A stretch of DNA of 64,000 nucleotides from Candidatus Woesebacteria bacterium RBG_13_46_13 (lineage in GTDB: Bacteria; Patescibacteriota; Microgenomatia; UBA8517): contig MGFR01000002.1 of NCBI GenBank assembly GCA_001791995.1, positions 36,457-100,456 of the forward strand, written 5' to 3'. Of this stretch, positions 3,636 through 53,985 are shown piece after piece. Numbering within the stretch: position 1 is the stretch's first letter; each line of letters opens with the position of its first letter. Below the pieces are notes generated by a model. That model was not told where the DNA came from. It ran no database searches and worked only from the letters and a program-made list of their open reading frames with translations. Made by a program: the position numbers and the translations under genes.

Positions 3636-4520
3636 ATGAAGAGAGCACTATTGGCGGTCGTTTTTGCGTTATTGCTTTATTTGGCTTTTGTTCGGCCGGC
3701 ATTGGCCGTGGTTGTTAGTCCCAAACCAACCGCAACGGTTGCTCCCACGGCAACTCCCACACCCATTCCGACTCCGGTGGCCGATTTAACCGAAAAAACC
3801 AAAGAAACCCTGGGTCCACTTGAGGCACTTCTGCAGGCTCAAAAACCCGGTCCGGTTTGGCCTTTTAACCCCATAAAGCATGCGATCAGAAACGCCGTAG
3901 CGGCAGGAGTTCCGGCAAATACCATAGTTTTGCTCCTTCTTTTGCCTGTGGTTGCCGCAATTATTGCGGCCTTCAGGCACCTGGTGGGACTAAGGGGGTT
4001 TGGAATTTTCCTCCCGGCTGCTTTGGCCGTAACCTTTGTGGCCACCGGTCCGGTTGTGGGGATAGGGCTCTTCTTAACGATTGTCAGCGTTTCGATTCTG
4101 GCCAGGACGCTACTGCGGAAAACCAAGACCAAGCTTCAGTATCTGCCGCGAATGGCCCTGATCCTCTGGTTTGTGGTTTTTGGTGTCTTGGGCATTTTAT
4201 TTGCAGCCCCCATCATCAGACAGCCGCAGCTGAGCAAGGTTTCCATCTTTCCCGTCCTTATCCTGGCTCTGTTGGCCGAGGACTTTACCCGGGTGCAGCT
4301 AGGCAAATCCGCCCAGACCGCGATTAATTTAACATCCGAAACATTGGTTTTGGCCCTGGTTTCGTATTTGTTCCTGACGCTTGAACCGGTAAGGCAATTT
4401 GCTCTTCTTAACCCTGAAATATTACTTATCGGCGTGGTTATCTTCGACGTTGTTTTGGGTAAGTATGTCGGGTTGAGGATTTTGGAGATTTGGCGCTTTA
4501 GGAAACTTATCAACAGCTAA
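3636..4520 (+). CDS. Multi-pass (7TM-like) membrane protein with a signal/anchor and a Pro/Thr/Ala-rich N-terminal segment
   Basis: 294 aa. MKRALLAVVFALLLYLAF anchor, PKPTATVAPTATPTPIPTPV linker, then about 6-7 hydrophobic helices. Its stop at 4518-4520 is directly followed by the ATG at 4522 of an ATP-grasp gene. The layout resembles 7TM proteins that partner alpha-L-glutamate-ligase-like enzymes. Confidence 0.55.
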   Translation: MKRALLAVVFALLLYLAFVRPALAVVVSPKPTATVAPTATPTPIPTPVADLTEKTKETLGPLEALLQAQKPGPVWPFNPIKHAIRNAVAAGVPANTIVLLLLLPVVAAIIAAFRHLVGLRGFGIFLPAALAVTFVATGPVVGIGLFLTIVSVSILARTLLRKTKTKLQYLPRMALILWFVVFGVLGILFAAPIIRQPQLSKVSIFPVLILALLAEDFTRVQLGKSAQTAINLTSETLVLALVSYLFLTLEPVRQFALLNPEILLIGVVIFDVVLGKYVGLRILEIWRFRKLINS

Positions 4521-4521
4521 A

Positions 4522-5808
4522 ATGAAACCCTCTTCGATTCTTGGACTTAATGCCCGTTCCCAGCTTTTTTCCTACCTCTATAATTCCCCCAAAGGAAAAA
4601 GCGTTGCCGATTCGAAACTGGCCACCCATAGGGTATTGGACAAAGTCCAAATCCCAAACCCGGAAATTTTCGCAAAGTTCAAAGAACCCAGAGACGTTGA
4701 AAAATTCAACTGGGAGAGCCTTCCGGATGCTTTCGCACTCAAGCCTTCCAAAGGTTTGGGAGGAGAAGGGATAATAGTTGTTAAAAAAAAGGCACAGGAC
4801 TTGAAAGGTTGGATAACTACCCAAAGACAAAGGGTTACAGTTGATGATTTAAAACTTCACACCTCCGATATTTTGGAGGGAGCCTACTCGATGGACAATG
4901 CACCCGATGTCGCTTTTGTCCAGGAGTATGTAGGCAGGCACAAGGCCTTTCGCAAGTATGCCTACCGGGGAACTCCTGATATTCGGGTCATTGTTTTTAA
5001 CAAAGTTCCGATTATGGCCATGCTTAGGCTTCCGACCAAAGAATCGGGGGGAAGAGCAAATCTGCATCAGGGAGCAATCGGGGTGGGGATTGATATCGCA
5101 ACAGGGATTACCACCAAAGCAATCTGGCACGGAGGGCTCATTAGATTCAAACCCGATACTGGGCGCAAACTTCACGGAATAAAAATTCCCCACTGGACCC
5201 AAGTACTCGAAACGGCAGCCAAGGCCCAGAGTGCTTCCGGTTTAGGCTATCTGGGGGTGGATATTGTCCTTCATCCGGAAAAAGGGCCGATGGTTTTGGA
5301 AATCAATGCCGAGCCGGGCTTAACCATCCAGCTTGCCAATATGGCAGGATTGAGAAAAAGGCTGGATAGGATAGAAGGGTTGGAGGTAAGGGATGCCGAA
5401 CACGGCGTAAAAATCGCCAAGGCGCTCTTTGCGGCCGATTTCGCGGACAGAGTCAAAGCGGAGGAGGGAATTATCACAATTCCGGTTATGGAGGAGATTA
5501 AAGTAAAGGATAAGCGTGGCAAGAAGATGGTTATTCCCGCCAAGATAGACACCGGCGCATTCAGAACCTCCATCGACAAAACTCTGGCCAAAGACCTCGG
5601 TCTTTTGCAGGAGGAGAGTATCCTTTGGGAAAGAAGATTCAGAAACGCGATCGGAAAAGAGGAAAGGCCAATTATTCCTTTTACCTTCTGGTTAAGGGGA
5701 AGAAGAATAAAAACCACCGCAGGGGTGGCGGACAGAAGTAGACTAAGACGACCCGTCATTGTAGGAAGACGAGACCTGACCGGTTTTTTGGTAAATCCCG
5801 AAAAATGA
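4522..5808 (+). CDS. Alpha-L-glutamate ligase-like ATP-grasp enzyme fused to a C-terminal retropepsin-like aspartic protease domain
   Basis: N-terminus ILGLNARSQLFSYLYNSPKGKSVADSKLATHRVLDKVQIP resembles the RimK-related alpha-L-glutamate-ligase-like family. The C-terminal part has PAKIDTGAFRTSID, a D-T/S-G-A aspartic protease signature, as in the putative ATP-dependent zinc protease / retropepsin-like domain usually found next to RimK. Confidence 0.7.
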   Translation: MKPSSILGLNARSQLFSYLYNSPKGKSVADSKLATHRVLDKVQIPNPEIFAKFKEPRDVEKFNWESLPDAFALKPSKGLGGEGIIVVKKKAQDLKGWITTQRQRVTVDDLKLHTSDILEGAYSMDNAPDVAFVQEYVGRHKAFRKYAYRGTPDIRVIVFNKVPIMAMLRLPTKESGGRANLHQGAIGVGIDIATGITTKAIWHGGLIRFKPDTGRKLHGIKIPHWTQVLETAAKAQSASGLGYLGVDIVLHPEKGPMVLEINAEPGLTIQLANMAGLRKRLDRIEGLEVRDAEHGVKIAKALFAADFADRVKAEEGIITIPVMEEIKVKDKRGKKMVIPAKIDTGAFRTSIDKTLAKDLGLLQEESILWERRFRNAIGKEERPIIPFTFWLRGRRIKTTAGVADRSRLRRPVIVGRRDLTGFLVNPEK

Positions 5809-6716
5809 AAAAAATATTAATCATCGCCGGGGGCGGAACAAAACACATGGAGCCTTTTAAGGTGGAGGGGGAGAAGCTGGGACTAAAGGTGGTCACCGCC
5901 AGCTTTTCGGATCTCTCATACACCACAGAAGGGGAGTTAAAATTATTTGTAAAGGGACTTCTGGTTGAATCTTTTGACGTAATCTATGTCAGACTCGTCG
6001 GAAAAAGATTTGAAGATGTCTCGCTTTTGGTCAATTATGTCAAGGAAAAAGGAATAAGAATTGTAGACAAAATATACGAAAAATCTCATATAATCCGCCT
6101 TCCTATTGCCAAGGCATTGGAGGTAAAACTTCTCTCCCAGGCAGGGGTTGTCCTCCCCAAGACTTTCTTCGCGAAACTCTCCGAAATTAAGCAAAAGGCT
6201 CCCGAACTGTACGGATCCCCCTTTGTTATCAAAGGAACTACCGGTAAACAGGGGCACGCGGTTTGGTCACCGAGAAATGCCGAAGAGCTGGAAAAACTTT
6301 ATCAGGAGCTTAAAGGTAAGGAGAAAGAAGGCAAAAGGTTTTTGGCACAGGAGTTTATCAAGGCCAGCCAAAGGATTAGGGTTTTTGTCGTCGGAGGAAA
6401 AGCAATTGCCGCCATAACCAGACCGACTCGCTGGAGGAGGCGTTTTATCGCCAAGGTGAATGGGGAATTTCCGGAGGGAAGACGTGAAGCTCTACTCCCG
6501 GTTCCCCAGGAGGATGCAGATTTGGCCGTAAGTGCGGCCAACGCTTTGGATGTCGATATTGCCGGGGTGGATGTTATTCACGAAGACTCAACCGGGAAAG
6601 CCTACGTTTTGGAGGTCAATAGCGCCCCCCGCTGGGAATCAATAACTAAAGACACCGGCGTTAACGTCGAAAGAGAGATACTGTTGTATCTTGATAGTAT
6701 AATGTCAGAGAAATGA
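5805..6716 (+). CDS. RimK-family ATP-grasp ligase (ribosomal protein S6 glutamate ligase-like)
   Basis: MKKILIIAGGG..., GSPFVIKGTTGKQGHAV, RVFVVGGKAIAAITRP, AGVDVIHEDSTGKAYVLEVNSAP are ATP-grasp RimK-like motifs. Start overlaps the upstream stop (ATGA at 5805-5808). Confidence 0.75.
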   Translation: MKKILIIAGGGTKHMEPFKVEGEKLGLKVVTASFSDLSYTTEGELKLFVKGLLVESFDVIYVRLVGKRFEDVSLLVNYVKEKGIRIVDKIYEKSHIIRLPIAKALEVKLLSQAGVVLPKTFFAKLSEIKQKAPELYGSPFVIKGTTGKQGHAVWSPRNAEELEKLYQELKGKEKEGKRFLAQEFIKASQRIRVFVVGGKAIAAITRPTRWRRRFIAKVNGEFPEGRREALLPVPQEDADLAVSAANALDVDIAGVDVIHEDSTGKAYVLEVNSAPRWESITKDTGVNVEREILLYLDSIMSEK

Positions 6717-7348
6717 CCGAACTAAAAGACTTAAAGGACGGGCCGTTTGAGGAAAGGGTTGCGGAAGTTGACCGCTGGGTTATTGCCTATGCTTCAGAAG
6801 GGGCGATCGGTTTAATTGACCGGGAGATTCTTAGGGGGGTACTTTCTGAAGTTGGTGCGAATTTTGAAAATTTGGACGAGGACGGTACAAAATCCCTTGC
6901 CCAATACTCCAACAAAGGGAAACATTTGGGAATGGAACAAGTTTGGGGTGAGCGTAGAGCCGAATTTAAAACCTGGACCGAGGCTTGGGTGGAAACTTAT
7001 GAAAGAAGAACAGGAAAAGAGCTTCCGAAAGTGGTTTTTACGGATGAGGAGACAGGCGAGAAAAGACCGTCGAAGACGGAAGGAATGAGGCAGTTATTGG
7101 GTGAGCTAACGGCATATGCATCCGGTTGTCTGAGCTTTCCCGAGTTGGCAAAGATACTGATTACTAGGCGTTATAATTTTGGCAAACCAAAGGATCAGCC
7201 GGCAGAGGAAGGCGGGAGAAGGAAAATTACGTTTTCCGGTCACAATATAAGCCAAGAAACGGGTAAAGAAAAACCTTTTGCTCCGGCTTCTTTTCCTCCG
7301 GAATTTCCCCTGGATGCTTGGGAAAAGATTAAAAGTTGGCGGAAATGA
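6713..7348 (+). CDS. Hypothetical protein (operon member)
   Basis: 211 aa, acidic and charged, no recognisable family. Start overlaps the RimK stop (ATGA) and its stop overlaps the next gene. Confidence 0.5.
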   Translation: MTELKDLKDGPFEERVAEVDRWVIAYASEGAIGLIDREILRGVLSEVGANFENLDEDGTKSLAQYSNKGKHLGMEQVWGERRAEFKTWTEAWVETYERRTGKELPKVVFTDEETGEKRPSKTEGMRQLLGELTAYASGCLSFPELAKILITRRYNFGKPKDQPAEEGGRRKITFSGHNISQETGKEKPFAPASFPPEFPLDAWEKIKSWRK

Positions 7349-7935
7349 CCCCCAGAGACAGCTATCTCAGGCGTTTTCGTAAATACGGAGTTGACCCCAG
7401 GACGCTTAAGTGGCAAAGCCAAAAAGCCGCCGAGCAAAGATATTTGGAGATAACCACCCTTACGGATTTTAACGGAAAGTCTGTCTTGGATGTCGGCTGC
7501 GGTTTCGGGGATCTGGTAGCCTTCATTAATTCCAAAACCGAAAACTTCTCCTATACGGGGATAGACTTGATTAACGAGTTTATTTTAGCTGCCAGAAAAA
7601 AATATCCTGGCTTTAGCTTTGTCATGGGGGACTATTTTTCAGACCCCCTTGAGGAAAAATTCGACATCGTTGTTGCCAATGGGTCTCTAAACTCAAATGT
7701 CCCCGACAATTACGCTTTTAGGAAAAAAGCCATCAAAACAATGTTCGATCACGCAAGGCAAGCGGTTATCTTTAATATGGCAGGAGGGTTTGCTCCCAAA
7801 GAGACGGCCCGGGGAAGTAACGTGTTCTTTGCGGACGCTTCCAAGATAGTCGGATTTTGCGAAAGTCTTACCTCCTCAGTCGTTTTGACAGACCACCCCG
7901 GCCGGCGGGAATTTACCGTAATTATGGCCCGTTAG
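7336..7935 (+). CDS. Class I SAM-dependent methyltransferase
   Basis: Motif I VLDVGCGFGDL and downstream DIVVANGSL are typical of Rossmann-fold MTases. Overlaps the upstream ORF by 13 nt. Confidence 0.65.
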   Translation: MAEMTPRDSYLRRFRKYGVDPRTLKWQSQKAAEQRYLEITTLTDFNGKSVLDVGCGFGDLVAFINSKTENFSYTGIDLINEFILAARKKYPGFSFVMGDYFSDPLEEKFDIVVANGSLNSNVPDNYAFRKKAIKTMFDHARQAVIFNMAGGFAPKETARGSNVFFADASKIVGFCESLTSSVVLTDHPGRREFTVIMAR

Positions 7936-7986: not shown

Positions 7987-8268
7987 ATGGAGGCACAAGC
8001 TTACTTTAACTGGATCCGTCGTCGGGCCGCGACACTGATTGTTGTTTCAGGTTTCCTGATTGTCGGCGCTATTGCGGCCTTCCTCTTCGGCAGGCCCGTG
8101 GTCGGAATGGTTCTGCTCTTGGGAGGGTTCATTCCCGGCTCTATGGCGGGAACCATCGGCTCGGCGAGCGAGCAGAAAGGCTGCTTTTGGTTTGCGGCAA
8201 GCATTATCTGCTGGCTCGCATTTTTGGGAGTGGTTGCCTGGGCTGTCTACGCCAACCTTTTCGGATAG
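7987..8268 (+). CDS. Small membrane protein (3 predicted TM helices)
   Basis: 93 aa hydrophobic ORF preceded by AAAGGAGGAGAGC ATG, a strong SD. Confidence 0.45.
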   Translation: MEAQAYFNWIRRRAATLIVVSGFLIVGAIAAFLFGRPVVGMVLLLGGFIPGSMAGTIGSASEQKGCFWFAASIICWLAFLGVVAWAVYANLFG

Positions 8269-8282
8269 GAAAGCCTCACCAT

Positions 8283-8333
8283 GTGCGCGGGATTATCCCG
8301 AAAGAGATGATTCCGCGCACGAAGTTTTTATTT
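8283..8333. terminator. Stem-loop (GTGCGCGG...CCGCGCAC) followed by a T-rich tract; probable terminator between convergent genes
   Basis: 8 bp GC-rich inverted repeat at 8283-8290 / 8313-8320, followed by GAAGTTTTTATTT. Lies between the stop of the 7987-8268 gene and the stop of rplL. Confidence 0.4.
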
Positions 8334-8729
8334 CAACTCCACTTTTGCTCCGGCTGCTGTTAGCTTATCGCTTGCAGCTTTTGCATCTTCCGCTTTTGCG
8401 TCCTTTAAAACCTCAGCCGGAAGAGTTTCGGTCATACCTTTTGCATCCATCAGAGTCAGGTTTTGATTGATTTCCCTAAGTGCTTTGATAACACCTATTT
8501 TATTTGCTCCTGCGTCCGTCATTACAACAGATTGGGTAGCTGCAGCTGTTGCGGCACCCGCTTCTGCTGCGGCTGGAGCTGCTGCCGGGGCTGCTGCGGC
8601 AACCGGCATCGCCGAGACTCCGAGTTTCTCCTGAAGTGTACTTACCAATTCCGAAAGTTCGATAACCGTAAGTTTGCCTATCTCTTCTGTCAATTCATCG
8701 ACTTTTTTGGTTTTTTTCTCTTCTGCCAT
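8328..8729 (-). CDS. rplL: 50S ribosomal protein L7/L12
   Basis: MAEEKKTKKVDELTEEIGKLTVIELSELV...AAAAPAAAPAAAEAG...KVELK has the classic L7/L12 N-terminal dimerisation domain, Ala/Pro hinge and C-terminal domain. The track ORF extends to a GTG at 8738; the ATG at 8727-8729 is preferred because it avoids overlap with rplJ. Confidence 0.9.
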   Translation of the reverse strand: MAEEKKTKKVDELTEEIGKLTVIELSELVSTLQEKLGVSAMPVAAAAPAAAPAAAEAGAATAAATQSVVMTDAGANKIGVIKALREINQNLTLMDAKGMTETLPAEVLKDAKAEDAKAASDKLTAAGAKVELK

Positions 8730-8730
8730 G

Positions 8731-9249
8731 TTACTCACCGCCTTTCGATTTTAAGATATAAATAAGTTTTTGCATGTTTCCCTCAAGGGTTCCGACCAAT
8801 CCGTAAGAGGGGGAGAGAAGTACTCCCAAGACCTGTCCCAAAAGCACATCTCTGCTGGGAAGGGTGGATATTTTAAGCAGGCTTTCGCTGTCCTGGAAGG
8901 CACCGTCAATTACTCCGACCTTGAGCTTGGGAACCTCGTATTCCTTTGCAAAGGTTCCAAGTATCTGTACCGGAGCAATGGCATCATCTTCACCAACGAC
9001 CAAAGCCGTCTGGCCGGAAAGAATCTCATCCTGGAGAATTTCGGGACTGACCCTAGCGGCTTCCCCCGCGCGTTTTAACAAGGTGTTTTTAACAACCAGC
9101 ATCTTGGCACCCACCTCTTTGAGTCTTCTTTTTAATTCCTGCTGGCTTTTGACGGACAGACCCTGATAATTAATAAGCACCACGGATTTAGCCGTCTTTA
9201 GCTCCTGGGTCAGGTTTTCGACAAAGAATATTTTTTCTGCCTTTTTCAT
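8731..9249 (-). CDS. rplJ: 50S ribosomal protein L10
   Basis: MKKAEKIFFVENLTQELKTAKSVVLINYQGLSV...; canonical rplJ-rplL order. Confidence 0.9.
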   Translation of the reverse strand: MKKAEKIFFVENLTQELKTAKSVVLINYQGLSVKSQQELKRRLKEVGAKMLVVKNTLLKRAGEAARVSPEILQDEILSGQTALVVGEDDAIAPVQILGTFAKEYEVPKLKVGVIDGAFQDSESLLKISTLPSRDVLLGQVLGVLLSPSYGLVGTLEGNMQKLIYILKSKGGE

Positions 9250-9261
9250 TTTGTTTGCATT

Positions 9262-9283
9262 AAAAAAGCGCCTTCGAGGCGCC
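9262..9283 (-). terminator. Intrinsic terminator / attenuator hairpin about 13 nt upstream of the rplJ start
   Basis: On the minus strand: GGCGCC-TCGAA-GGCGC (5-6 bp GC stem, 5 nt loop), immediately followed by TTTTTT, then AATGCAAACAAA ATG (rplJ). Confidence 0.45.
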
Positions 9284-9369
9284 TATATACAAGATACTTA
9301 TATACGCTTTTGCCTCGGCACGAATTATGGTTCGACTTGGCGCACCACGTGCTGTCTTGGGACAGAGAT

Positions 9370-9397
9370 ATTATAAATTAAAGGGGATTATTGTCAA
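9370..9397 (-). promoter_or_regulatory. Near-consensus sigma70-type promoter (TTGACA-16 nt-TATAAT) upstream of the rplJ leader
   Basis: Minus strand: TTGACA (9392-9397), ATAATCCCCTTTAATT spacer, TATAAT (9370-9375). Confidence 0.35.
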
Positions 9398-10146
9398 CCG
9401 TTAGCTTTGCCTTCACCCCGCAGAATCCTTAAAAAGGGAATTCTGTCGTACCAGCGTCTTTTAATCTCCTGCCCTCGGCTAATGGATTGCTTGGCGGCAA
9501 CTTGTTCAAGGGCTGGTGCGGGGGTTGCTGGGGGCTGGGTTTTGGTCTCAACCACCTGCCCGATGCCTCTTTGGGCTACCTGTTCGCGGTAGTCGGGGGC
9601 CGGCCTAACCGGGCCTTGCCTAACGGCGGTTTCGACATATTTGGGGGCAAGTCTGGTTTGCTCTCTTTTTAACCAGGAAGGGGCTGTTGCGGGGGCCTCT
9701 GTCGAGGTGGCGGTTGTCGGAAAGGTTTCCGTTTGTGAAGGCGTCTCGGCAGGAGGGGTAACCGGAGCTGGCGTTCTCCTTACAAAGACAGAAGGCGCTT
9801 GGGCTTTGGCATCGATTTCTTTTTGAGTATCCATTATTGCATTAAATCTTCTAACCCCCTCGTCTCTTATTCCGCTTTTGGCCTTAACCGCTTCCGGGGT
9901 CGTTCCCTCCCAGTTGGCCATGCTTGCGGCTAGTCTGTTGCGATCGGTTAAGGGCTCGAGTTTGTTCTCGGCCGTTATGGTATCGGACCCTTTAGCTTCC
10001 TCTTCCTGTCCGCCGCTTTTGGTCTTAACTTTTCCCGGGGTCGTTCCCTCCCAGTTGGCCATGCTTGCGGCTAGTCTGTTGCGATCGGTTAAGGGCTCAC
10101 GTTGATCCTCGGCCATGAGTATTATTCTAACAGGGGCAAAAGGCAA
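9394..10146 (-). CDS. Hypothetical Pro/Thr/Ala-rich protein with an internal duplicated 21-residue motif, inserted between rplA and rplJ
   Basis: 250 aa ORF filling the whole rplA-rplJ gap. The motif EPLTDRNRLAASMANWEGTTP occurs twice and is encoded by two 64 bp identical DNA repeats. The start may be the internal Met (MAEDQREPL). Confidence 0.5.
   Translation of the reverse strand: MPFAPVRIILMAEDQREPLTDRNRLAASMANWEGTTPGKVKTKSGGQEEEAKGSDTITAENKLEPLTDRNRLAASMANWEGTTPEAVKAKSGIRDEGVRRFNAIMDTQKEIDAKAQAPSVFVRRTPAPVTPPAETPSQTETFPTTATSTEAPATAPSWLKREQTRLAPKYVETAVRQGPVRPAPDYREQVAQRGIGQVVETKTQPPATPAPALEQVAAKQSISRGQEIKRRWYDRIPFLRILRGEGKANG
9894..9957. repeat. 64 bp direct repeat, copy 1 (intragenic)
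   Basis: CCGGGGTCGTTCCCTCCCAGTTGGCCATGCTTGCGGCTAGTCTGTTGCGATCGGTTAAGGGCTC is identical to the copy at 10035-10098. Confidence 0.85.
10035..10098. repeat. 64 bp direct repeat, copy 2 (intragenic)
   Basis: Exact copy of 9894-9957, 141 bp away, in the same reading frame of the 9394-10146 ORF. Confidence 0.85.
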
Positions 10147-10160
10147 GATACAACTCGGGG

Positions 10161-10955
10161 TTAGATTTTAACCTTGACTGAAGGGCCCATACTGGCTTTG
10201 GTGTAGGCTTTAACTATCTGTTTGTCTTTACCGAGTGCAGTCAATACTGCCTCGGCATTTGCGATTAGTTCCTTGTCCGGTTGGCTGACCTTACCGAAGA
10301 CGGTATGGATTAAGGGTGCTTCTTTTTCGGTTTTAACTGTAATGGCGTTGGCGGAGAAGGCCTTGGCTTTTTTCGGATCGGAAATTAAAGTCCCGTTTTT
10401 GGGATTGGGCATGAGTCCTTTGGGACCCAAAATCCTGGCAAAAGGAACCAACTTCGGCATCATTTCGGCCGTTGCCAAGAGAATATCGAAATCAATCTTG
10501 CCTTCCTTGAGTTTGGCGACAGTTGCCTCGTCTGCGATTTCTATCTTCTTTTCCTTTCCGGCCGAGTGGGGGAATTTGACGTTGGCGCTCACCCCAACCT
10601 TTTTTAGAACCAGATGCAACTCGAGTGAGCCGTCAAACTTGGAATATGAAGTTTCTTTGGCCAAATTGATCGCTTCGGGGAGCGGATAAAGAGTTATGGG
10701 GTTTATCTTGGTTTTTGCCTCCTGATATTTTTTGCCCCTGACCTTGGGAGCATTGACTTTTTTTTCCTTAGCCCCCCCTTCGGTTCCTTCGGCAGTCGTG
10801 GTTTCCGTAGGTAATGGTTCGGCCTCAATGGTTTTAATTCTTTGTCCACCCTTTAGCCCCGCAATATGAATTTTCTCCGGTTTTGCCGACTGTTTTTTGT
10901 GCTCTTTCTTTTCTTCTACCCCTTCGCCGATGAATGCTGTTTTGGTTTTGCCCAT
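10161..10955 (-). CDS. rplA: 50S ribosomal protein L1 with a K/E-rich N-terminal extension of about 70 aa
   Basis: PITLYPLPEAINLAKETSYSKFDGSLELHLVL...GPKGLMPNPKNGT is conserved L1 core. Adjacent to rplK. Confidence 0.9.
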   Translation of the reverse strand: MGKTKTAFIGEGVEEKKEHKKQSAKPEKIHIAGLKGGQRIKTIEAEPLPTETTTAEGTEGGAKEKKVNAPKVRGKKYQEAKTKINPITLYPLPEAINLAKETSYSKFDGSLELHLVLKKVGVSANVKFPHSAGKEKKIEIADEATVAKLKEGKIDFDILLATAEMMPKLVPFARILGPKGLMPNPKNGTLISDPKKAKAFSANAITVKTEKEAPLIHTVFGKVSQPDKELIANAEAVLTALGKDKQIVKAYTKASMGPSVKVKI

Positions 10956-10956
10956 T

Positions 10957-11385
10957 TTATCCTTCTATTTTTATTCCCATGGAACGGGCTGTTCCGGCAA
11001 CGATTTTCTTGGCCGCCTCAACGTTGTCGGTATTCAAATCTTTCATTTTCTCCTGGGCGATTTTCCCCAGTTGGGCATCGGTTAAGGTTCCCGCGGTTTC
11101 TTTGGGGGTAACCCCCGAGCCTTTTTCGATTCCCAACTCTTTTTTAATCATGTCCGCAACCGGGGCCAGTTTGGTGATAAATTCGAAACTTCTGTCTTCA
11201 TAAATGGTAATTACCGCCGGGACAGTGTTGCCCTTCATGGCTGCGGTTGCCTCGTTATATTGTTTGACAAACTCCATGATGGCAACCCCGTGCTGTCCCA
11301 ATGCGGGCCCCAATGGGGGAGCGGGCGTAGCTTCCCCTGCGGGAAGGTTGACCTTGATTACGGTTTTAACTTTTTTGGCTGCCAT
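10957..11385 (-). CDS. rplK: 50S ribosomal protein L11
   Basis: [44 protein letters not shown]... has the canonical L11 N-terminus. Confidence 0.9.
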
Positions 11386-11480: not shown

Positions 11481-12095
11481 CTAGACTTTGGCTATTTGCA
11501 AGAAGTCCAGCTCAACCGGGGTTTCCCGGCCGAAAATCGAAACCAATACTTTTACCTTGCCTTTTTCTTCGTCAATCTCGTGAATGGTTCCCAAGAAGTC
11601 CGCGAACGGTCCGTCGGTAATTTTGATAGCCTCACCCACGGAGAACTTGGTTTTAAATCTCGGGGCCGGGGCCGAGATGAACTTTTGAATATTGGTAACT
11701 TCTTCATCCGAAAGGGGAGTCGGGGCATTTCCCGCTCCAACGAATCCTGTTATTCCCGGAGTTGTTCTTACTGCCAGCCAGGTGGGGTCATCCAAAATCA
11801 TCTTGACCAAAAGGTATCCCGGGAATATTTTTTCCTTGACGGTGGCTTTTCTGCCGCCTCTGATCACAACCCTATCCTGGGTGGCAACCAAGAGTTCGAA
11901 GATTTTTCCCTGGAGACTCATCGTTTCGACTCTTTGTCTTAAGGTTTCCGAAACCCTGGCCTCATGCCCGGAGGCGGTGTGAACCACATACCATCTGGCT
12001 TTGGGGTCGGTTGTTTCGGAAATGACGATATGGCCGGGAATTTTTTTCTTCCCGGTTCCGCGCTCATCGACTGCAACAGGAGTGTCTTTATCCAT
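11481..12095 (-). CDS. nusG: Transcription termination/antitermination factor NusG
   Basis: WYVVHTASGHEARVSETLRQR... is the NGN domain. The C-terminal KOW (GEAIKITDGPFADFLGTIHEIDEEKGKVKVLVSIFGRETPVELDFLQI) and the position between secE and rplK also fit. Confidence 0.9.
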   Translation of the reverse strand: MDKDTPVAVDERGTGKKKIPGHIVISETTDPKARWYVVHTASGHEARVSETLRQRVETMSLQGKIFELLVATQDRVVIRGGRKATVKEKIFPGYLLVKMILDDPTWLAVRTTPGITGFVGAGNAPTPLSDEEVTNIQKFISAPAPRFKTKFSVGEAIKITDGPFADFLGTIHEIDEEKGKVKVLVSIFGRETPVELDFLQIAKV

Positions 12096-12280
12096 TAACG
12101 ATTGAAAAGAAGACCCAGAGCCTTAGTAAAGATAAAATCGAGCCCTCCAAGATAAATTGCCACAATTAGCGAGATAGAAAAAACTACTAGCGTAAGTCTG
12201 ACTACCTCTTGCCGTTTTGGCCAAGTTACTTTGGAGAGTTCTCCTCTTACTTCGGAAAAAAACCCCAGAACCTTCTCCAC
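12095..12280 (-). CDS. secE: Preprotein translocase subunit SecE
   Basis: 61 aa with the SEVRGELSKVTWPKRQEV motif followed by a single TM helix. Immediately upstream of nusG. Confidence 0.8.
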   Translation of the reverse strand: MEKVLGFFSEVRGELSKVTWPKRQEVVRLTLVVFSISLIVAIYLGGLDFIFTKALGLLFNR

Positions 12281-12320: not shown

Positions 12321-13571
12321 ATGAGAGACAAAGAGCGCAGTCGTCCTGGCGTCCCGGACATTCCCGGACTTCATAAAGGTAGGATTGAAGCCCAGAGGGA
12401 AGTATGGGCTTCTCGAAGAAGGGTGGGTTTCCCCGACAGGCGGGCGGACCTTTTCGTGATTGCCAAAGACGACGAATATTTTTTGGATTTGCCCTACTTG
12501 GCGATCCCCGGAAGGGATGACCTGCCGAGTCTATCCTCCTGGGTTCCCCGGGTGCAATCAATAACAGGAGCAATATTTACCACACGCTGGGTAGATGTTG
12601 CCCCGGACTCTTCTTTGGATGAGGTTCTTCCGCTGGGCGGCCGTTATCTTATTGAAGGCAAAATTTCCCCGAAAATCGCCAAGGCCGCCAAAATCTCGAG
12701 ACTTGTTCCACAGGAAATATTCGGGGGCTTGCCGGCAGCCATGAGACAGCAGGAAGAAATTGCCCACGACCTGGGGGTTAACAAGGGGGTGGAGCAAAGA
12801 AGAATCGAATCGGTTTTGGTAGGAATTCACGGTTTAACCGAGACGCTCTTGGAAGGAGACATTACCGAAATGACTCTGCAAAAAATGGCGAAAGAGACGG
12901 AAAAAATTCTGAGGCATGAGAACTTGTTAAAATCCAAAGATGCCATCTGGAGCAAGGTGGTGGATTACACGCTCCGCGCAGCCAAAAAGGATAGACTCAA
13001 TAGAACCAACCCGACGGCATCGCGGATTCTGGCCCGGGCTGCTTATCTGAGGGTTGTCGACTTGGAACTTTTGCTACGGGAGGCCCGACAAAAAGCAGTG
13101 AGAACTTTTGAGTATTTGGAAACGGTTAATGTTGCCTCCCGTCTGGCTTTTGAAGATGCACTCCAAGCTCTTGCAGAGGCTGAGAAAAGAATCGAAGCCT
13201 CTGGTGGTTATCTGGTAAACGGTACCCACACCCACCTGATGGCCAGAGAGTCGTGGGAGATAGAAGGAATAGTCCGCGGCGTAGCAGATAATGTTTTGGA
13301 GCCAATACAGGCAGCTCCTTACTTAGGGGTGGCTGCTTTGGCACGGGCGGTACTTACTGGAGTCAGGTATAAATCCCGGGAGGGTATCAGCCAGCTAAGA
13401 GAAGTTTTGCGCTATGTGGGTTTAGAGAAGGAGCTGGATAAAGCCTCGGTAGCGGATTATCTGATTCTGCGCTACGGAACCCCAGCCGTTCGCCGGCTGC
13501 ATCACGCCCAGACTCTGTTGGGGATGGCGCTGGCTGACCCAGACTACAAAGAGACAGCCGTTTTTAAATGA
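12321..13571 (+). CDS. Hypothetical protein (416 aa, largely alpha-helical, no recognisable family)
   Basis: Long ORF with good coding continuity. Stop overlaps the rnhB start (ATGA). Confidence 0.5.
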   Translation: MRDKERSRPGVPDIPGLHKGRIEAQREVWASRRRVGFPDRRADLFVIAKDDEYFLDLPYLAIPGRDDLPSLSSWVPRVQSITGAIFTTRWVDVAPDSSLDEVLPLGGRYLIEGKISPKIAKAAKISRLVPQEIFGGLPAAMRQQEEIAHDLGVNKGVEQRRIESVLVGIHGLTETLLEGDITEMTLQKMAKETEKILRHENLLKSKDAIWSKVVDYTLRAAKKDRLNRTNPTASRILARAAYLRVVDLELLLREARQKAVRTFEYLETVNVASRLAFEDALQALAEAEKRIEASGGYLVNGTHTHLMARESWEIEGIVRGVADNVLEPIQAAPYLGVAALARAVLTGVRYKSREGISQLREVLRYVGLEKELDKASVADYLILRYGTPAVRRLHHAQTLLGMALADPDYKETAVFK

Positions 13572-25456: not shown

Positions 25457-25527
25457 CAGGGGCGGAGAGAATCGAACTCCCATTGCGGGTTTTGGAGACC
25501 CGCGTCCTACCATTGAACGACGCCCCT
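25457..25527 (-). tRNA. trnW: tRNA-Trp (anticodon CCA)
   Basis: Reverse complement: AGGGGCG TC GTTCAATGGTAGGAC G CGGGT CTCCAAA ACCCG CAAT GGGAG TTCGATT CTCTC CGCCCCT G. The acceptor stem pairs, the anticodon loop is CU-CCA-AA, and the T-loop is TTCGATT. Confidence 0.85.
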
Positions 25528-25565
25528 AGACAAGCGCAATTATACCAATTTTTGGGTTTGGATGC

Positions 25566-25742
25566 TTATTTCAGCTTCGAGGATTCTTTATGGGGGGTAA
25601 CCTTCCGGCAGGTTCTGCAGTACTTGTTAAGCAGCAGCTTCTTTTCTTCCATGTTGATCTTGTTCCTTTCGGTAAGATAGTTCTGGTTCTTACAGACGGA
25701 ACAAAGCAAGGCTACATGTTCTCGCGCACCTTTTTTTGCCAT
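25566..25742 (-). CDS. rpmG: 50S ribosomal protein L33
   Basis: Manual translation gives MAKKGAREHVALLCSVCKNQNYLTERNKINMEEKKLLLNKYCRTCRKVTPHKESSKLK, 58 aa, with the CxxC...CxxC L33 zinc ribbon. Missing from the ORF track (under 60 aa). Confidence 0.8.
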   Translation of the reverse strand: MAKKGAREHVALLCSVCKNQNYLTERNKINMEEKKLLLNKYCRTCRKVTPHKESSKLK

Positions 25743-25784
25743 ACGTTGCGTATTTTACCTAAAGCAGGCTCTCTAAACAATAGG

Positions 25785-25856
25785 GAGCCGAGGGTGGGAA
25801 TCGGACCCACGACCTAGTCATTACCAATGACTTGCTCTACCACTGAGCCACCTCGG
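25785..25856 (-). tRNA. tRNA-Thr (anticodon GGT)
   Basis: Reverse complement: GCCGAGG TG GCTCAGTGGTAGAGC A AGTCA TTGGTAA TGACT AGGTC GTGGG TTCGATT CCCAC CCTCGGC T. Acceptor and anticodon stems pair; anticodon GGT. Confidence 0.85.
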
Positions 25857-26009
25857 CGCATGAGAATTATATCAAAAACTTGCTATACTCAAAGAAATGA
25901 GCCGTACCCAAGCCCTGCTTCTGATTCTTGCCGCAGCCTTCTTTATTGTCCTGATCTACGTTGTCAGCCACCTTACGGCCTTTGGCCCTTCGGGAGTCTT
26001 CAAATAGGG

Positions 26010-26094
26010 TGCTGGGACTAGGATTCGAACCTAGGTAGGCCTTTCGACCGCCAGATTTACAGTCTGGTGCGATTGTCCGCTCCGCCATCCCAGC
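26010..26094 (-). tRNA. tRNA-Tyr (anticodon GTA, long variable arm)
   Basis: Reverse complement: GCTGGGA TG GCGGAGCGGACAATCGC ACCAGA CTGTAAA TCTGG CGGTCGAAAGGCCTACC TAGG TTCGAAT CCTAG TCCCAGC A, a type II tRNA. Confidence 0.85.
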
Positions 26095-26095
26095 T

Positions 26096-26170
26096 TGGAG
26101 CCGACGAGTGGATTCGAACCACTGACTTGCTGTTTACAAAACAGCTACTCTACCGCTGAGTTACGCCGGC
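26096..26170 (-). tRNA. tRNA-Thr (anticodon TGT), CCA encoded
   Basis: Reverse complement: GCCGGCG TA ACTCAGCGGTAGAGT A GCTGT TTTGTAA ACAGC AAGTC AGTGG TTCGAAT CCACT CGTCGGC T CCA. Confidence 0.85.
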
Positions 26171-52260: not shown

Positions 52261-53985
52261 ATGCAAGGAATAATTTTCGAATCCGGGAATAAGGACAAAG
52301 AAGAAGCGAAAGAAACTCCGAAACAGGATCAGGCCGAGGTGGTTAAGGAGACGGCTCCGGAGGTAAAAGGAAGCCTAAGCGCAGAGGCTTTGACCCTTCT
52401 GAAATATTATCAGTCGACCATTAAGGAAGAAACTTCCCAACAATGGGAACCGAAAGTTAAAGTGGGGGAAACCCTCTCGGGGGTTGCCCAGGTTTACGAG
52501 AGGTTAAGATACGCGGTTGACTACAAGAAAGAGCACCTCTTAAGAAGAAATGCCATCGAGCGCATCCTCAAGCGGCAGCTTAGGACGGTGGAAAGAAATC
52601 CGCGTGAGATAGCCGACAACCTGATCAAGGAGCTTATCTGGGCAAGATACTTAAGAAACGATTATCTGCCCGTGTCCCGTACCGAGGCCGCAGCCGGAAT
52701 AATTGCCAAATACTTAAAGTTTTTTAGTCTTATCCCCAGCCGTTATCACGATAGGAAAGAAGGGGCCTGGTGGAGAGACTGGCTGATCTCGATTGCCTCC
52801 TGTGAGCTTGAGGAAGCAATCGATCCGTCCCTAATCTCAATCGACGCTTTATCCCTTTCAACCCTTGCCTGGTTTAAGAAACGCTACCAATGGTTGGGGG
52901 ACGGACTTGATGATACCCAAAAAGACATCCAGACAACGATTGCGGTTTACCGGGGACTTTTCAGAACGGATGATGCCAGAACCGCATATCATCTTCTGAA
53001 AAACATGTATCCCCAGTGGAGCAATATTCGCGCCGAGGATCTCGACGGAAATACTCCAAAAATTTTCGATCTCTTTGCTACCATCCGTGCGGACTTAAAT
53101 CCCGCGATTCAAACCAGACTTTACAGATTCGTACAAAGACAGATTTCGGCTTTTCAAATCCTCAAAGAAGTTATCGAGCAGGATGTGGAGAATGCAGCCA
53201 GGGTCTTTGCCAATCCCCAGGTTTTGGAAGAAGCCGTTTATGACGTTTGTGAGGAAAAGTACGGAGAGATTAGCGACAGGGTTGCCCGGGGGATTATCCG
53301 GAGCATTATCTATATCTTTGTGACCAAGATTTTCTTTGCGATAGTCATTGAAATTCCTTACGAATACTATTTTCTGGGAGGGATCAGCTATGTGCCTCTT
53401 TTGACCACGGTTCTTATCCCCATCCTTTTTGTCTTTTTGGTGGCCCTGACTATCAAAAAACCAAATGAAGCCAATACCCAAAGAATTTTGGAAAAGATAT
53501 CCGACTTTGTTTATGTATCGGGTCGCAAGGAAAAAACCAAATTCAGTCTAACCGCAGCCAATAGGGGAGGAATAATGTATAAGGCCTTTGCCTTTGTCTA
53601 TAGCGTCCTTTTCCTTTTGATTTTCGGAGCGATTTCGTATTTGCTGCAGAAGATCGGCTTTAATTTCGTAGGAGGAGTGATCTTCTTTATCTTCTTATCC
53701 TTGGTTCTCTTATTCGCCTACCGGGTTAAGTTTACCGCCTCGGAGCTGAATGTCACCGAGCCGAAAGAAAGTCTTTTGTCCCACCTGATGACAAATTTGA
53801 GTCTGCCGTTATTGGATGTGGGAGTCTGGTTGTCCGATAAATTTTCCAGATTTAACTTTTTGATAGTGTTTTTGGATATCCTGATCGAGGCGCCTCTGAA
53901 AAACATCATCGGAGTTGCGGATGAATGGACCTCGTTTGTGAAGGAGAGAAAAGAGGAAGTCGTCGAAATCCCCGTCGAGAGATAA
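52261..53985 (+). CDS. Hypothetical large protein: soluble N-terminal region plus C-terminal polytopic membrane region
   Basis: 574 aa. Hydrophobic helices from about residue 330 onward (IIYIFVTKIFFAIVIEIPY..., LLIFGAISYLLQKIGFNFVGGVIFFIFLSLVLLF...). Confidence 0.5.
   Translation: MQGIIFESGNKDKEEAKETPKQDQAEVVKETAPEVKGSLSAEALTLLKYYQSTIKEETSQQWEPKVKVGETLSGVAQVYERLRYAVDYKKEHLLRRNAIERILKRQLRTVERNPREIADNLIKELIWARYLRNDYLPVSRTEAAAGIIAKYLKFFSLIPSRYHDRKEGAWWRDWLISIASCELEEAIDPSLISIDALSLSTLAWFKKRYQWLGDGLDDTQKDIQTTIAVYRGLFRTDDARTAYHLLKNMYPQWSNIRAEDLDGNTPKIFDLFATIRADLNPAIQTRLYRFVQRQISAFQILKEVIEQDVENAARVFANPQVLEEAVYDVCEEKYGEISDRVARGIIRSIIYIFVTKIFFAIVIEIPYEYYFLGGISYVPLLTTVLIPILFVFLVALTIKKPNEANTQRILEKISDFVYVSGRKEKTKFSLTAANRGGIMYKAFAFVYSVLFLLIFGAISYLLQKIGFNFVGGVIFFIFLSLVLLFAYRVKFTASELNVTEPKESLLSHLMTNLSLPLLDVGVWLSDKFSRFNFLIVFLDILIEAPLKNIIGVADEWTSFVKERKEEVVEIPVER

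Follow-up and report, generated by a model that had tools for sequence, protein, structure and literature searches.

An orphan gene with an internally duplicated motif between rplA and rplJ in a ribosomal protein gene cluster of Candidatus Woesebacteria

The E. coli-type rplKA/rplJL arrangement, with its promoters PL11 and PL10 and its L10 leader RNA (RF00557), has the gene order secE-nusG-rplK-rplA followed by rplJ-rplL. This order is kept on the minus strand of a 64,000-nucleotide (nt) stretch of contig MGFR01000002.1 from Candidatus Woesebacteria bacterium RBG_13_46_13 (here the window, meaning the whole stretch analysed), in which a strong promoter also lies directly before a leader that matches the Rfam L10 leader family. 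In contrast to the E. coli type, the window has a gene for a protein of 240 amino acids (aa), here called the orphan gene, between rplA and PL10, with its stop codon inside the -35 box of that promoter, and rpoB and rpoC do not follow rplL. The minus-strand cluster thus reads secE (12095-12280), nusG (11481-12095), rplK coding for uL11 (10957-11385), rplA coding for uL1 (10161-10955), the orphan gene, rplJ coding for uL10 (8731-9249) and rplL coding for bL12 (8328-8738 as the maximal open reading frame (ORF), ATG 8729 being the likelier start). Each of the four ribosomal proteins has a Pfam match.

There is high confidence in the description given below of the orphan gene as a real gene, of its architecture, of the history of its duplication and of its transcription layout. 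The explanation that joins gene, history and transcription to a ribosomal partner of the encoded protein is put forward as a tentative whole, held with somewhat less than even confidence.

An ORF filling the gap between rplA and rplJ was pointed out in an earlier note on this DNA and is present on the minus strand at 9394-10146. The frame of 753 bp, listed as a maximal ORF of 250 aa from TTG 10146, exists as described; its probable coding part is shorter, comprising the 723 nt at 9394-10116 from ATG 10116 to the TGA at 9394-9396, which code for 240 aa (MAEDQREPL...GEGKANG). Initiation at ATG 10116 rather than at TTG 10146 is most likely because the protein and all its relatives begin with MAED. 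The in-frame upstream extension (10117-10146, minus strand) overlaps a putative promoter and is missing from all relatives, and the upstream sequence differs at the related locus L001. This extension is probably not translated.

Comparison with the ortholog of L001, from a species whose protein is 82% identical, gives a ratio of nonsynonymous to synonymous substitution rates (dN/dS) of 0.096 at a dS of about 1.0. The value is far from the dN/dS of about 1 that the earlier note would have taken as the mark of a frame lacking a coding signature, and it is close to those of rplA (0.087) and rplJ (0.060) in the same pair of loci. The orphan sequence has an evolutionary rate about three times that of rplA and rplJ, and the slot is kept. 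Its GC content at third codon positions (GC3) is 0.54, similar to that of adjoining genes, while the raised overall GC of the ORF is due to second codon positions and reflects a composition rich in Ala, Pro, Thr and Arg. More than 10 loci preserve the reading frame, among them forms split in two coupled genes that have a Shine-Dalgarno sequence. These signatures identify the orphan ORF as a genuine protein-coding gene. A chance ORF, or a decaying remnant devoid of function in a long spacer, could have a low-complexity Pro/Thr/Ala-rich composition, no known domain and an in-frame stop codon like the one carried by the related locus L006; this explanation is refuted by the dN/dS at such a dS and by conservation, with blocks still conserved at 35% identity and the frame maintained across the loci, and it retains hardly any probability. 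Horizontal transfer or a mobile element was rejected as the origin of the gene on account of its native GC3, the absence of inverted repeats and the absence of a paralog within the window.

The rplJ promoter PL10 (9370-9397, minus strand) matches the consensus at 12 of 12 positions (TTGACA, a 16-nt spacer and TATAAT), and the TGA of the orphan gene is found inside its -35 hexamer, as is also the case in L001, L003, L006, L007, L093 and L094. The L10 leader RNA (9253-9379, minus strand; 48.4 bits in Rfam for a gathering score of 44) lies 14 nt downstream of the end of the orphan ORF, which is hence outside the leader. The order stop codon-promoter-leader-hairpin-rplJ is found in all six loci whose sequence reaches that far (window, L001, L006, L093, L094 and L095); the excerpts of L003, L007 and L010 stop inside the L10 leader. 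Since its stop lies in the -35 box of PL10, upstream of the L10 leader, the orphan ORF is predicted to be the last gene of the rplK-rplA stretch and to stand outside the rplJL stalk unit. The co-transcription inside the stalk operon envisaged in the earlier note is at odds with this layout. Leaders of L10 that act by transcription attenuation have been described. In the window a GC-rich hairpin (9284-9266, minus strand) followed by a T run just 5' of the rplJ ATG, conserved in the relatives, looks like such an attenuator.

The orphan ATG is not preceded by a Shine-Dalgarno sequence. A putative promoter of its own (10124-10153, minus strand) is composed of TTGTAT (10153-10148), an 18-nt spacer and TAGAAT (10129-10124), which ends 7 nt from the ATG. 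Six related loci have the arrangement TTGCAA-17/18-TA(A/G)AAT-6/7-ATG; in five of the six the TTGCAA is inside the rplA coding end, and coding constraint may explain part of its conservation. With a -10 box at 7 nt, a -35 box at 18-nt spacing and no Shine-Dalgarno sequence, the gene has the features of a leaderless promoter, from which we infer that it has its own promoter giving a leaderless mRNA. The gene is then probably transcribed both from this leaderless promoter and by read-through from the rplK promoter. The motif TAnAAT-N5-8-ATG occurs 16 times in the window, nine times with at least 80 open codons after it, and coincides exactly with three listed ORF starts, at 52261 (plus strand), 54023 (plus strand) and 20321 (minus strand). 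TAnAAT is thus present 5-8 nt before the ATG of several genes that have no Shine-Dalgarno sequence (52261 and 54023 on the plus strand, 20321 and 10116 on the minus strand), and many transcripts of this genome may be leaderless.

The rplK-rplA-rplJ-rplL arrangement, described in the earlier note as otherwise universal, is not so in Microgenomates. The best uL1 matches among one genome per GTDB species place the organism in Candidatus Woesebacteria (Microgenomates, Patescibacteria), with only 68% uL1 identity to the nearest representative. Eighty Microgenomates loci (L013-L092) were fetched via uL1, and 57 of them have rplA and rplJ in order. The distance between the two genes varies from 75 to 3677 nt and exceeds 500 nt in 33 of these 57 loci: it is at most 330 nt in 13, 331-500 nt in 11, 501-1000 nt in nine and above 1000 nt in 24. 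The larger gaps accommodate unrelated genes, often on the opposite strand, which code for a class I tRNA-synthetase-like protein, a FAD oxidoreductase, an IS1595 transposase, a PP2C phosphatase and several proteins without known function. The rplA-rplJ junction is a frequent insertion site in Microgenomates, so that a fixed gene order of ribosomal clusters should not be presumed there.

Many Woesebacteria have at this junction a small hydrophilic ORF of 60-200 aa on the same strand, often with an M-[AS]-E start and a basic carboxyl terminus, located about 30-55 nt downstream of rplA and about 110-165 nt upstream of rplJ (L015:4855-5073, L019:4831-5148, L022:4851-5063, L023:3126-3368, L029:4788-5030, L030:4798-5199, L031:4823-5428 and L043:4842-5048). 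Only those of L023, L029 and L034 cluster mutually. Homology of the small ORFs of L015, L019, L022, L023, L025, L027, L029-L031 and L043 to the orphan family is not supported: hmmsearch in a database of 283 sequences gave E values of at least 0.1. The probability obtained with hhalign for small ORFs against the orphan family is 0.2%, and all-against-all phmmer linked only L017 to the family, marginally and via P0012.

The orphan family totals about 13 proteins among the billions searched. A search of 5.8 billion clustered proteins yielded three relatives, a profile search eight and a search with the carboxyl-terminal profile one more, P0013, while a metagenome scan added a single new partial locus, L097. 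The relatives are 35-97% identical and come from different samples; about 10, from separate metagenomes, share the rplA-rplJ location. All those with enough flanking sequence (P0001-P0003, P0006-P0008, P0012 and P0013) lie between these two genes on the same strand; P0010 is on a short contig whose neighbouring genes are untyped. No member has a Pfam domain (best E = 0.28, at chance level), an NCBIfam family or a match at E <= 10 in a profile search of the Protein Data Bank (PDB), so that the duplicated motif, for which no likeness had been recognised at first reading, is also without a known match in these three resources. Literature searches returned no account of a gene at the rplA-rplJ junction of these bacteria. 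The family is new and unannotated, its sole source-named member being labelled "hypothetical protein", and nothing at the locus points to a new kind of system.

The orphan protein is basic, with an isoelectric point of 8.9-9.6 across members and 9.6 for the window protein, and hydrophilic (grand average of hydropathy about -0.9). An AlphaFold2 run with a seven-sequence alignment gave a model without a globular fold, with a predicted local distance difference test score (pLDDT) of 55 and a predicted template modelling score (pTM) of 0.19. The model has isolated helices at residues 10-20, 58-69, 74-106, 147-156, 176-185 and 203-232 (203-225 plus 227-232), of which the first two are the two copies of the duplicated motif. 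The most confident parts are helix 74-106 (pLDDT about 85 around residues 91-100) and the carboxyl-terminal helix (81-85). The prediction is that of a protein largely intrinsically disordered, with isolated helices.

Conserved blocks distinguish two modules. The N-module comprises MAED, a short helical motif and a longer helix, and a helix G-V-x-R-F-K-x-I is likewise among the conserved blocks. The C-module comprises P-x-W-L-K-R-E-Q, in the conserved block P-x-W-L-K-R-E-Q-x-R-L, then K-Q-S-I-x-x-G-Q-E-I-K and the tail R-W-x-D-R-I-P-F-L-R-I-L-R-G-E, both within the conserved terminus E-Q-V-A-A-K-Q-S-I-x-x-G-Q-E-I-K-K-R-W-x-D-R-I-P-F-L-R-I-L-R-G-E. The modules are fused in a single gene in the window, L001, L003, L007 and L010 and split in two adjacent genes in L093, L094 and L100/L101, where the N-part has 148-185 aa and the C-part, starting M-S-E-P-G-x-E-I-P-K-P-A-W-L, has 76-113 aa. 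The split genes overlap in ATGA with AGGAG about 10 nt upstream, an organization that predicts their translational coupling. Locus L095 has the N-module alone. The terminal segment of either module tends to be cationic and amphipathic, with a hydrophobic moment (muH) of 0.42-0.88 and a net charge of +3 to +6. The muH is 0.88 for the L100 N-module (KKGLLQRLGNLFRRQPK), 0.80 for P0010, 0.61 for P0008 (SFLTRFWNNLTGRS) and 0.42 for the window protein, whose tail has a proline in mid-segment.

The counterpart of the window motif in distant members was sought in the RELTEEARKLNTIAMGTG block and in the N-terminal AKATMERLQRKGILP block, and neither was significant with leave-out hidden Markov models (HMMs; best E = 0.13). 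Its place after MAED tentatively points to the N-terminal block AKATMERLQRKGILP. The split-form N-modules of L094 (L094:3200-3402) and L093 (L093:90-289) have an internal duplication of their own of about 40 aa (..QPELTTEERRKIQEIN.. and ..VPNLTPEERSRIAEIN..). That their repeats (PELTTEERRKIQEIN, PNLTPEERSRIAEIN) are the window motif duplicated independently found no support in leave-out HMMs; it remains that internal duplication recurs within the orphan family.

The repeat of the window gene invites comparison with the repeats of bacterial surface proteins that undergo concerted evolution. The two perfect 64-nt copies first noticed, at 9894-9957 and 10035-10098, were borne out, and their identity extends by zero bases on either side. 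They are the cores of a 141-nt (47-codon) in-frame tandem duplication on the minus strand, whose unit A, the N-terminal copy (9972-10112; EDQREPLTDRNRLAASMANWEGTTPGKVKTKSGGQEEEAKGSDTIT; core at 10035-10098), has a diverged 3' part and whose unit B (9831-9971; ENKLEPLTDRNRLAASMANWEGTTPEAVKAKSGIRDEGVRRFNAIM; core at 9894-9957) is collinear with the single unit found in L001. The two units are 79% identical overall, with differences at 0 of 64 positions in the core versus 29 of 77 in the flanks (Fisher p = 1.3e-9). The window core differs at 13 of 64 positions from that of the L001 ortholog, and the 3' flank of copy A is equally distant from copy B and from L001 (24 of 63 positions each). ATGG is present at both unit borders, in the start codon context and in the codon of the Met of AIMD, which fits a microhomology-mediated tandem duplication.

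Repeat number varies between relatives, as the earlier note had considered possible: there is one copy in L001 and two in the window and in L006, a locus 97% identical, from another sample and on an independent contig. The presence of both copies in L006 also disposes of the concern that the repeat could be an assembly artefact; typical short reads are longer than an identical stretch of 64 nt. The differences between the window and L006 are all within copy A. In L006 (L006:36-320) an in-frame TAA replaces GAA in the copy A linker and one base is changed in the copy A core. Either this TAA truly disrupts the first copy or it is an error in a short contig.

The copies are closer to each other than to L001 and the identical tract is sharply bounded, features of concerted evolution, so that the identity of the 64-nt core is best read as maintained by gene conversion. 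Of the two origins proposed at the outset for the identity, recent duplication or gene conversion, it is thus the latter that fares better, because the mosaic of identical core and diverged flanks is not producible by a simple young duplication. A simple recent tandem duplication without conversion, in which the 64-nt identity would reflect youth and the flank differences a fast divergence of relaxed linkers, accounts for the single copy of L001, which makes the duplication younger than the split unless L001 lost one, and for the restriction of all window-L006 differences, stop codon included, to copy A, suggestive of relaxed constraint. However, at a flank divergence of 38% the synonymous sites of the core (roughly 16-20, an estimate) should differ and no position does, and the 3' flank of copy A is as far from copy B as from L001; this alternative is considered improbable. 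A later second partial copy event is a possible alternative source of the identical core. In the preferred history an in-frame tandem duplication of 141 nt between the two ATGG microhomologies would have doubled the N-terminal motif in the window lineage, and later gene conversion would have held the motif core identical while the rest of copy A drifted. As in surface-protein repeats, the orphan copies are identical to each other and 20% off the ortholog copy, with a sharp border between identical core and diverged flanks; unlike them, the orphan gene has two copies only, a tract of 64 nt and a cytoplasmic disordered product. As an example of gene conversion within a coding tandem duplication the locus is small and clean, with a tract of about 64 nt.

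Lineage-specific ribosomal proteins are exemplified by bTHX of Thermus, bS22 and bL37 of mycobacteria and the plastid-specific ribosomal proteins. Like them, the orphan protein is taxonomically restricted, basic, largely unstructured alone and has no homologs outside its clade; those proteins, most of them much shorter, were discovered in ribosomes themselves, whereas the orphan protein, known from sequence, is a longer chain of two modules with only moderate basicity. In the favoured explanation the protein, made alongside uL11 and uL1, would associate with the large ribosomal subunit or its rRNA as an accessory or assembly partner, its short helical motifs folding on binding. Strict conservation of the slot in spite of the fast sequence evolution, the basic and disordered nature of a protein with helical motifs and an N-terminal extension of about 70 aa in the uL1 of the window point in this direction, and so do the reported losses of Der, H78, bL9 and uL1 taken up below. 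This uL1 extension (10746-10955, minus strand; MGKTKTAF..KIHIAGLKGGQRIK..) is outside the Pfam L1 model and is conserved across Woesebacteria, Gottesmanbacteria and Amesbacteria loci.

Several observations weigh against a ribosomal role. The junction between two transcription units appears to be a permissive site that accepts unrelated genes, so position, including location in a ribosomal operon, is weak evidence of function there. The putative own promoter suggests an expression partly independent of the ribosomal genes. The clade concerned is small: an exhaustive HMMER search of 1.84 billion representative proteins gave eight matches, two scans of one genome per GTDB species, one of them with the family's own sequence patterns, gave no confirmed relative, and the gene appears restricted to a small subclade of Candidatus Woesebacteria. 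The Pfam, NCBIfam and PDB profile searches linked the protein to no ribosomal protein, no biogenesis factor and no solved structure. The first motif copy may be dispensable given the TAA of L006, if this is not a contig error, and cationic amphipathic tails suit docking to a membrane or to a partner equally well. The ribosome-associated factor of the earlier note is therefore a possibility suggested by position only, the arrangement not being universal and the ORF lying outside the stalk unit at a permissive junction; a ribosome-associated function of the orphan protein is the best guess but is rated as doubtful.

A more specific proposal takes up the L1 stalk. In Microgenomatia, Der and the L1-stalk helix H78 of the 23S rRNA are reported missing, as are, in a lineage-specific manner, bL9 and uL1 in candidate phyla radiation (CPR) bacteria (PMC12641178). 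The orphan family could be a Woesebacteria-specific, two-module large-subunit protein, acting as structural accessory or assembly chaperone on the uL1/uL11 side and helping to compensate for a remodelled L1-stalk region (no H78 or Der, bL9 maybe missing), with motif copy number under selection. Such selection would explain both the duplication and the gene conversion. This elaboration is thought quite unlikely.

Membrane-targeting sequences of MinD and FtsA provide a different comparison, as they have, after a flexible region, a short cationic amphipathic end that the tails of the orphan family resemble. The orphan protein could be a non-ribosomal, lineage-specific adaptor or scaffold encoded at a permissive junction, with terminal cationic amphipathic helices anchoring it to the membrane or to a partner and the duplicated motif serving as a binding site whose copy number matters. 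In hydrophobic moment and net charge the tails of the family lie in the range computed for the targeting sequences of FtsA and MinD from E. coli, and the occupation of the junction by unrelated genes in relatives, the apparent own promoter, the fast evolution and the modular fused or split architecture all agree with such a role. The likeness to MinD and FtsA is one of calculated hydrophobic moment only, and the orphan protein has no ATPase or actin-like domain; moreover, amphipathicity alone predicts weakly, and the window tail, of the fused form, has a central proline and only a moderate moment. A strict same-strand slot running from rplA into the rplJ promoter, kept at 35-97% identity, is not required of a scaffold, and inspection of the hydrophilic sequence by eye, with no predictor run, shows no evident signal peptide or membrane-spanning segment. 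A scaffold of this kind is rated as doubtful, to the same degree as the ribosome-associated function.

The FtsZ carboxyl-terminal peptide, D-I-P-x-F-L-R, has hydrophobic residues at i, i+3 and i+4. Mimicry of this peptide by the family segment D-R-I-P-F-L-R was rejected by inspection, the segment being one residue shorter with I, F and L at i, i+2 and i+3.

The ribosomes of CPR bacteria are known to be reduced and remodelled and, to our knowledge, none has been examined structurally. If the orphan protein binds the ribosome, it would be among the first lineage-specific ribosomal components proposed for these bacteria. The fused and split forms of the family provide two natural constructs for binding tests.

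Other features were observed in the window. In the place after rplL where rpoB and rpoC could be expected, there is a convergent ORF for a hydrophobic protein of 93 aa (7987-8268, plus strand), separated from rplL by a terminator with a 16-bp hairpin (8282-8321). It is preceded by a plus-strand gene cluster (3636-7935), also convergent with rplL, which codes for a 7TM_transglut protein, an ATPgrasp_ST protein, a RimK-like ATP-grasp protein, a 211-aa protein without known function and a methyltransferase; these same neighbouring genes recur in L010, L011 and L095. On the other side of the ribosomal genes, divergent from secE and adjoining the gene for RNase HII, an ORF at 12321-13571 (plus strand) encodes a 416-aa protein that has no Pfam match and is a conserved neighbour in L003, L007 and L012. 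Four tRNA genes are clustered at 25457-26170 on the minus strand.

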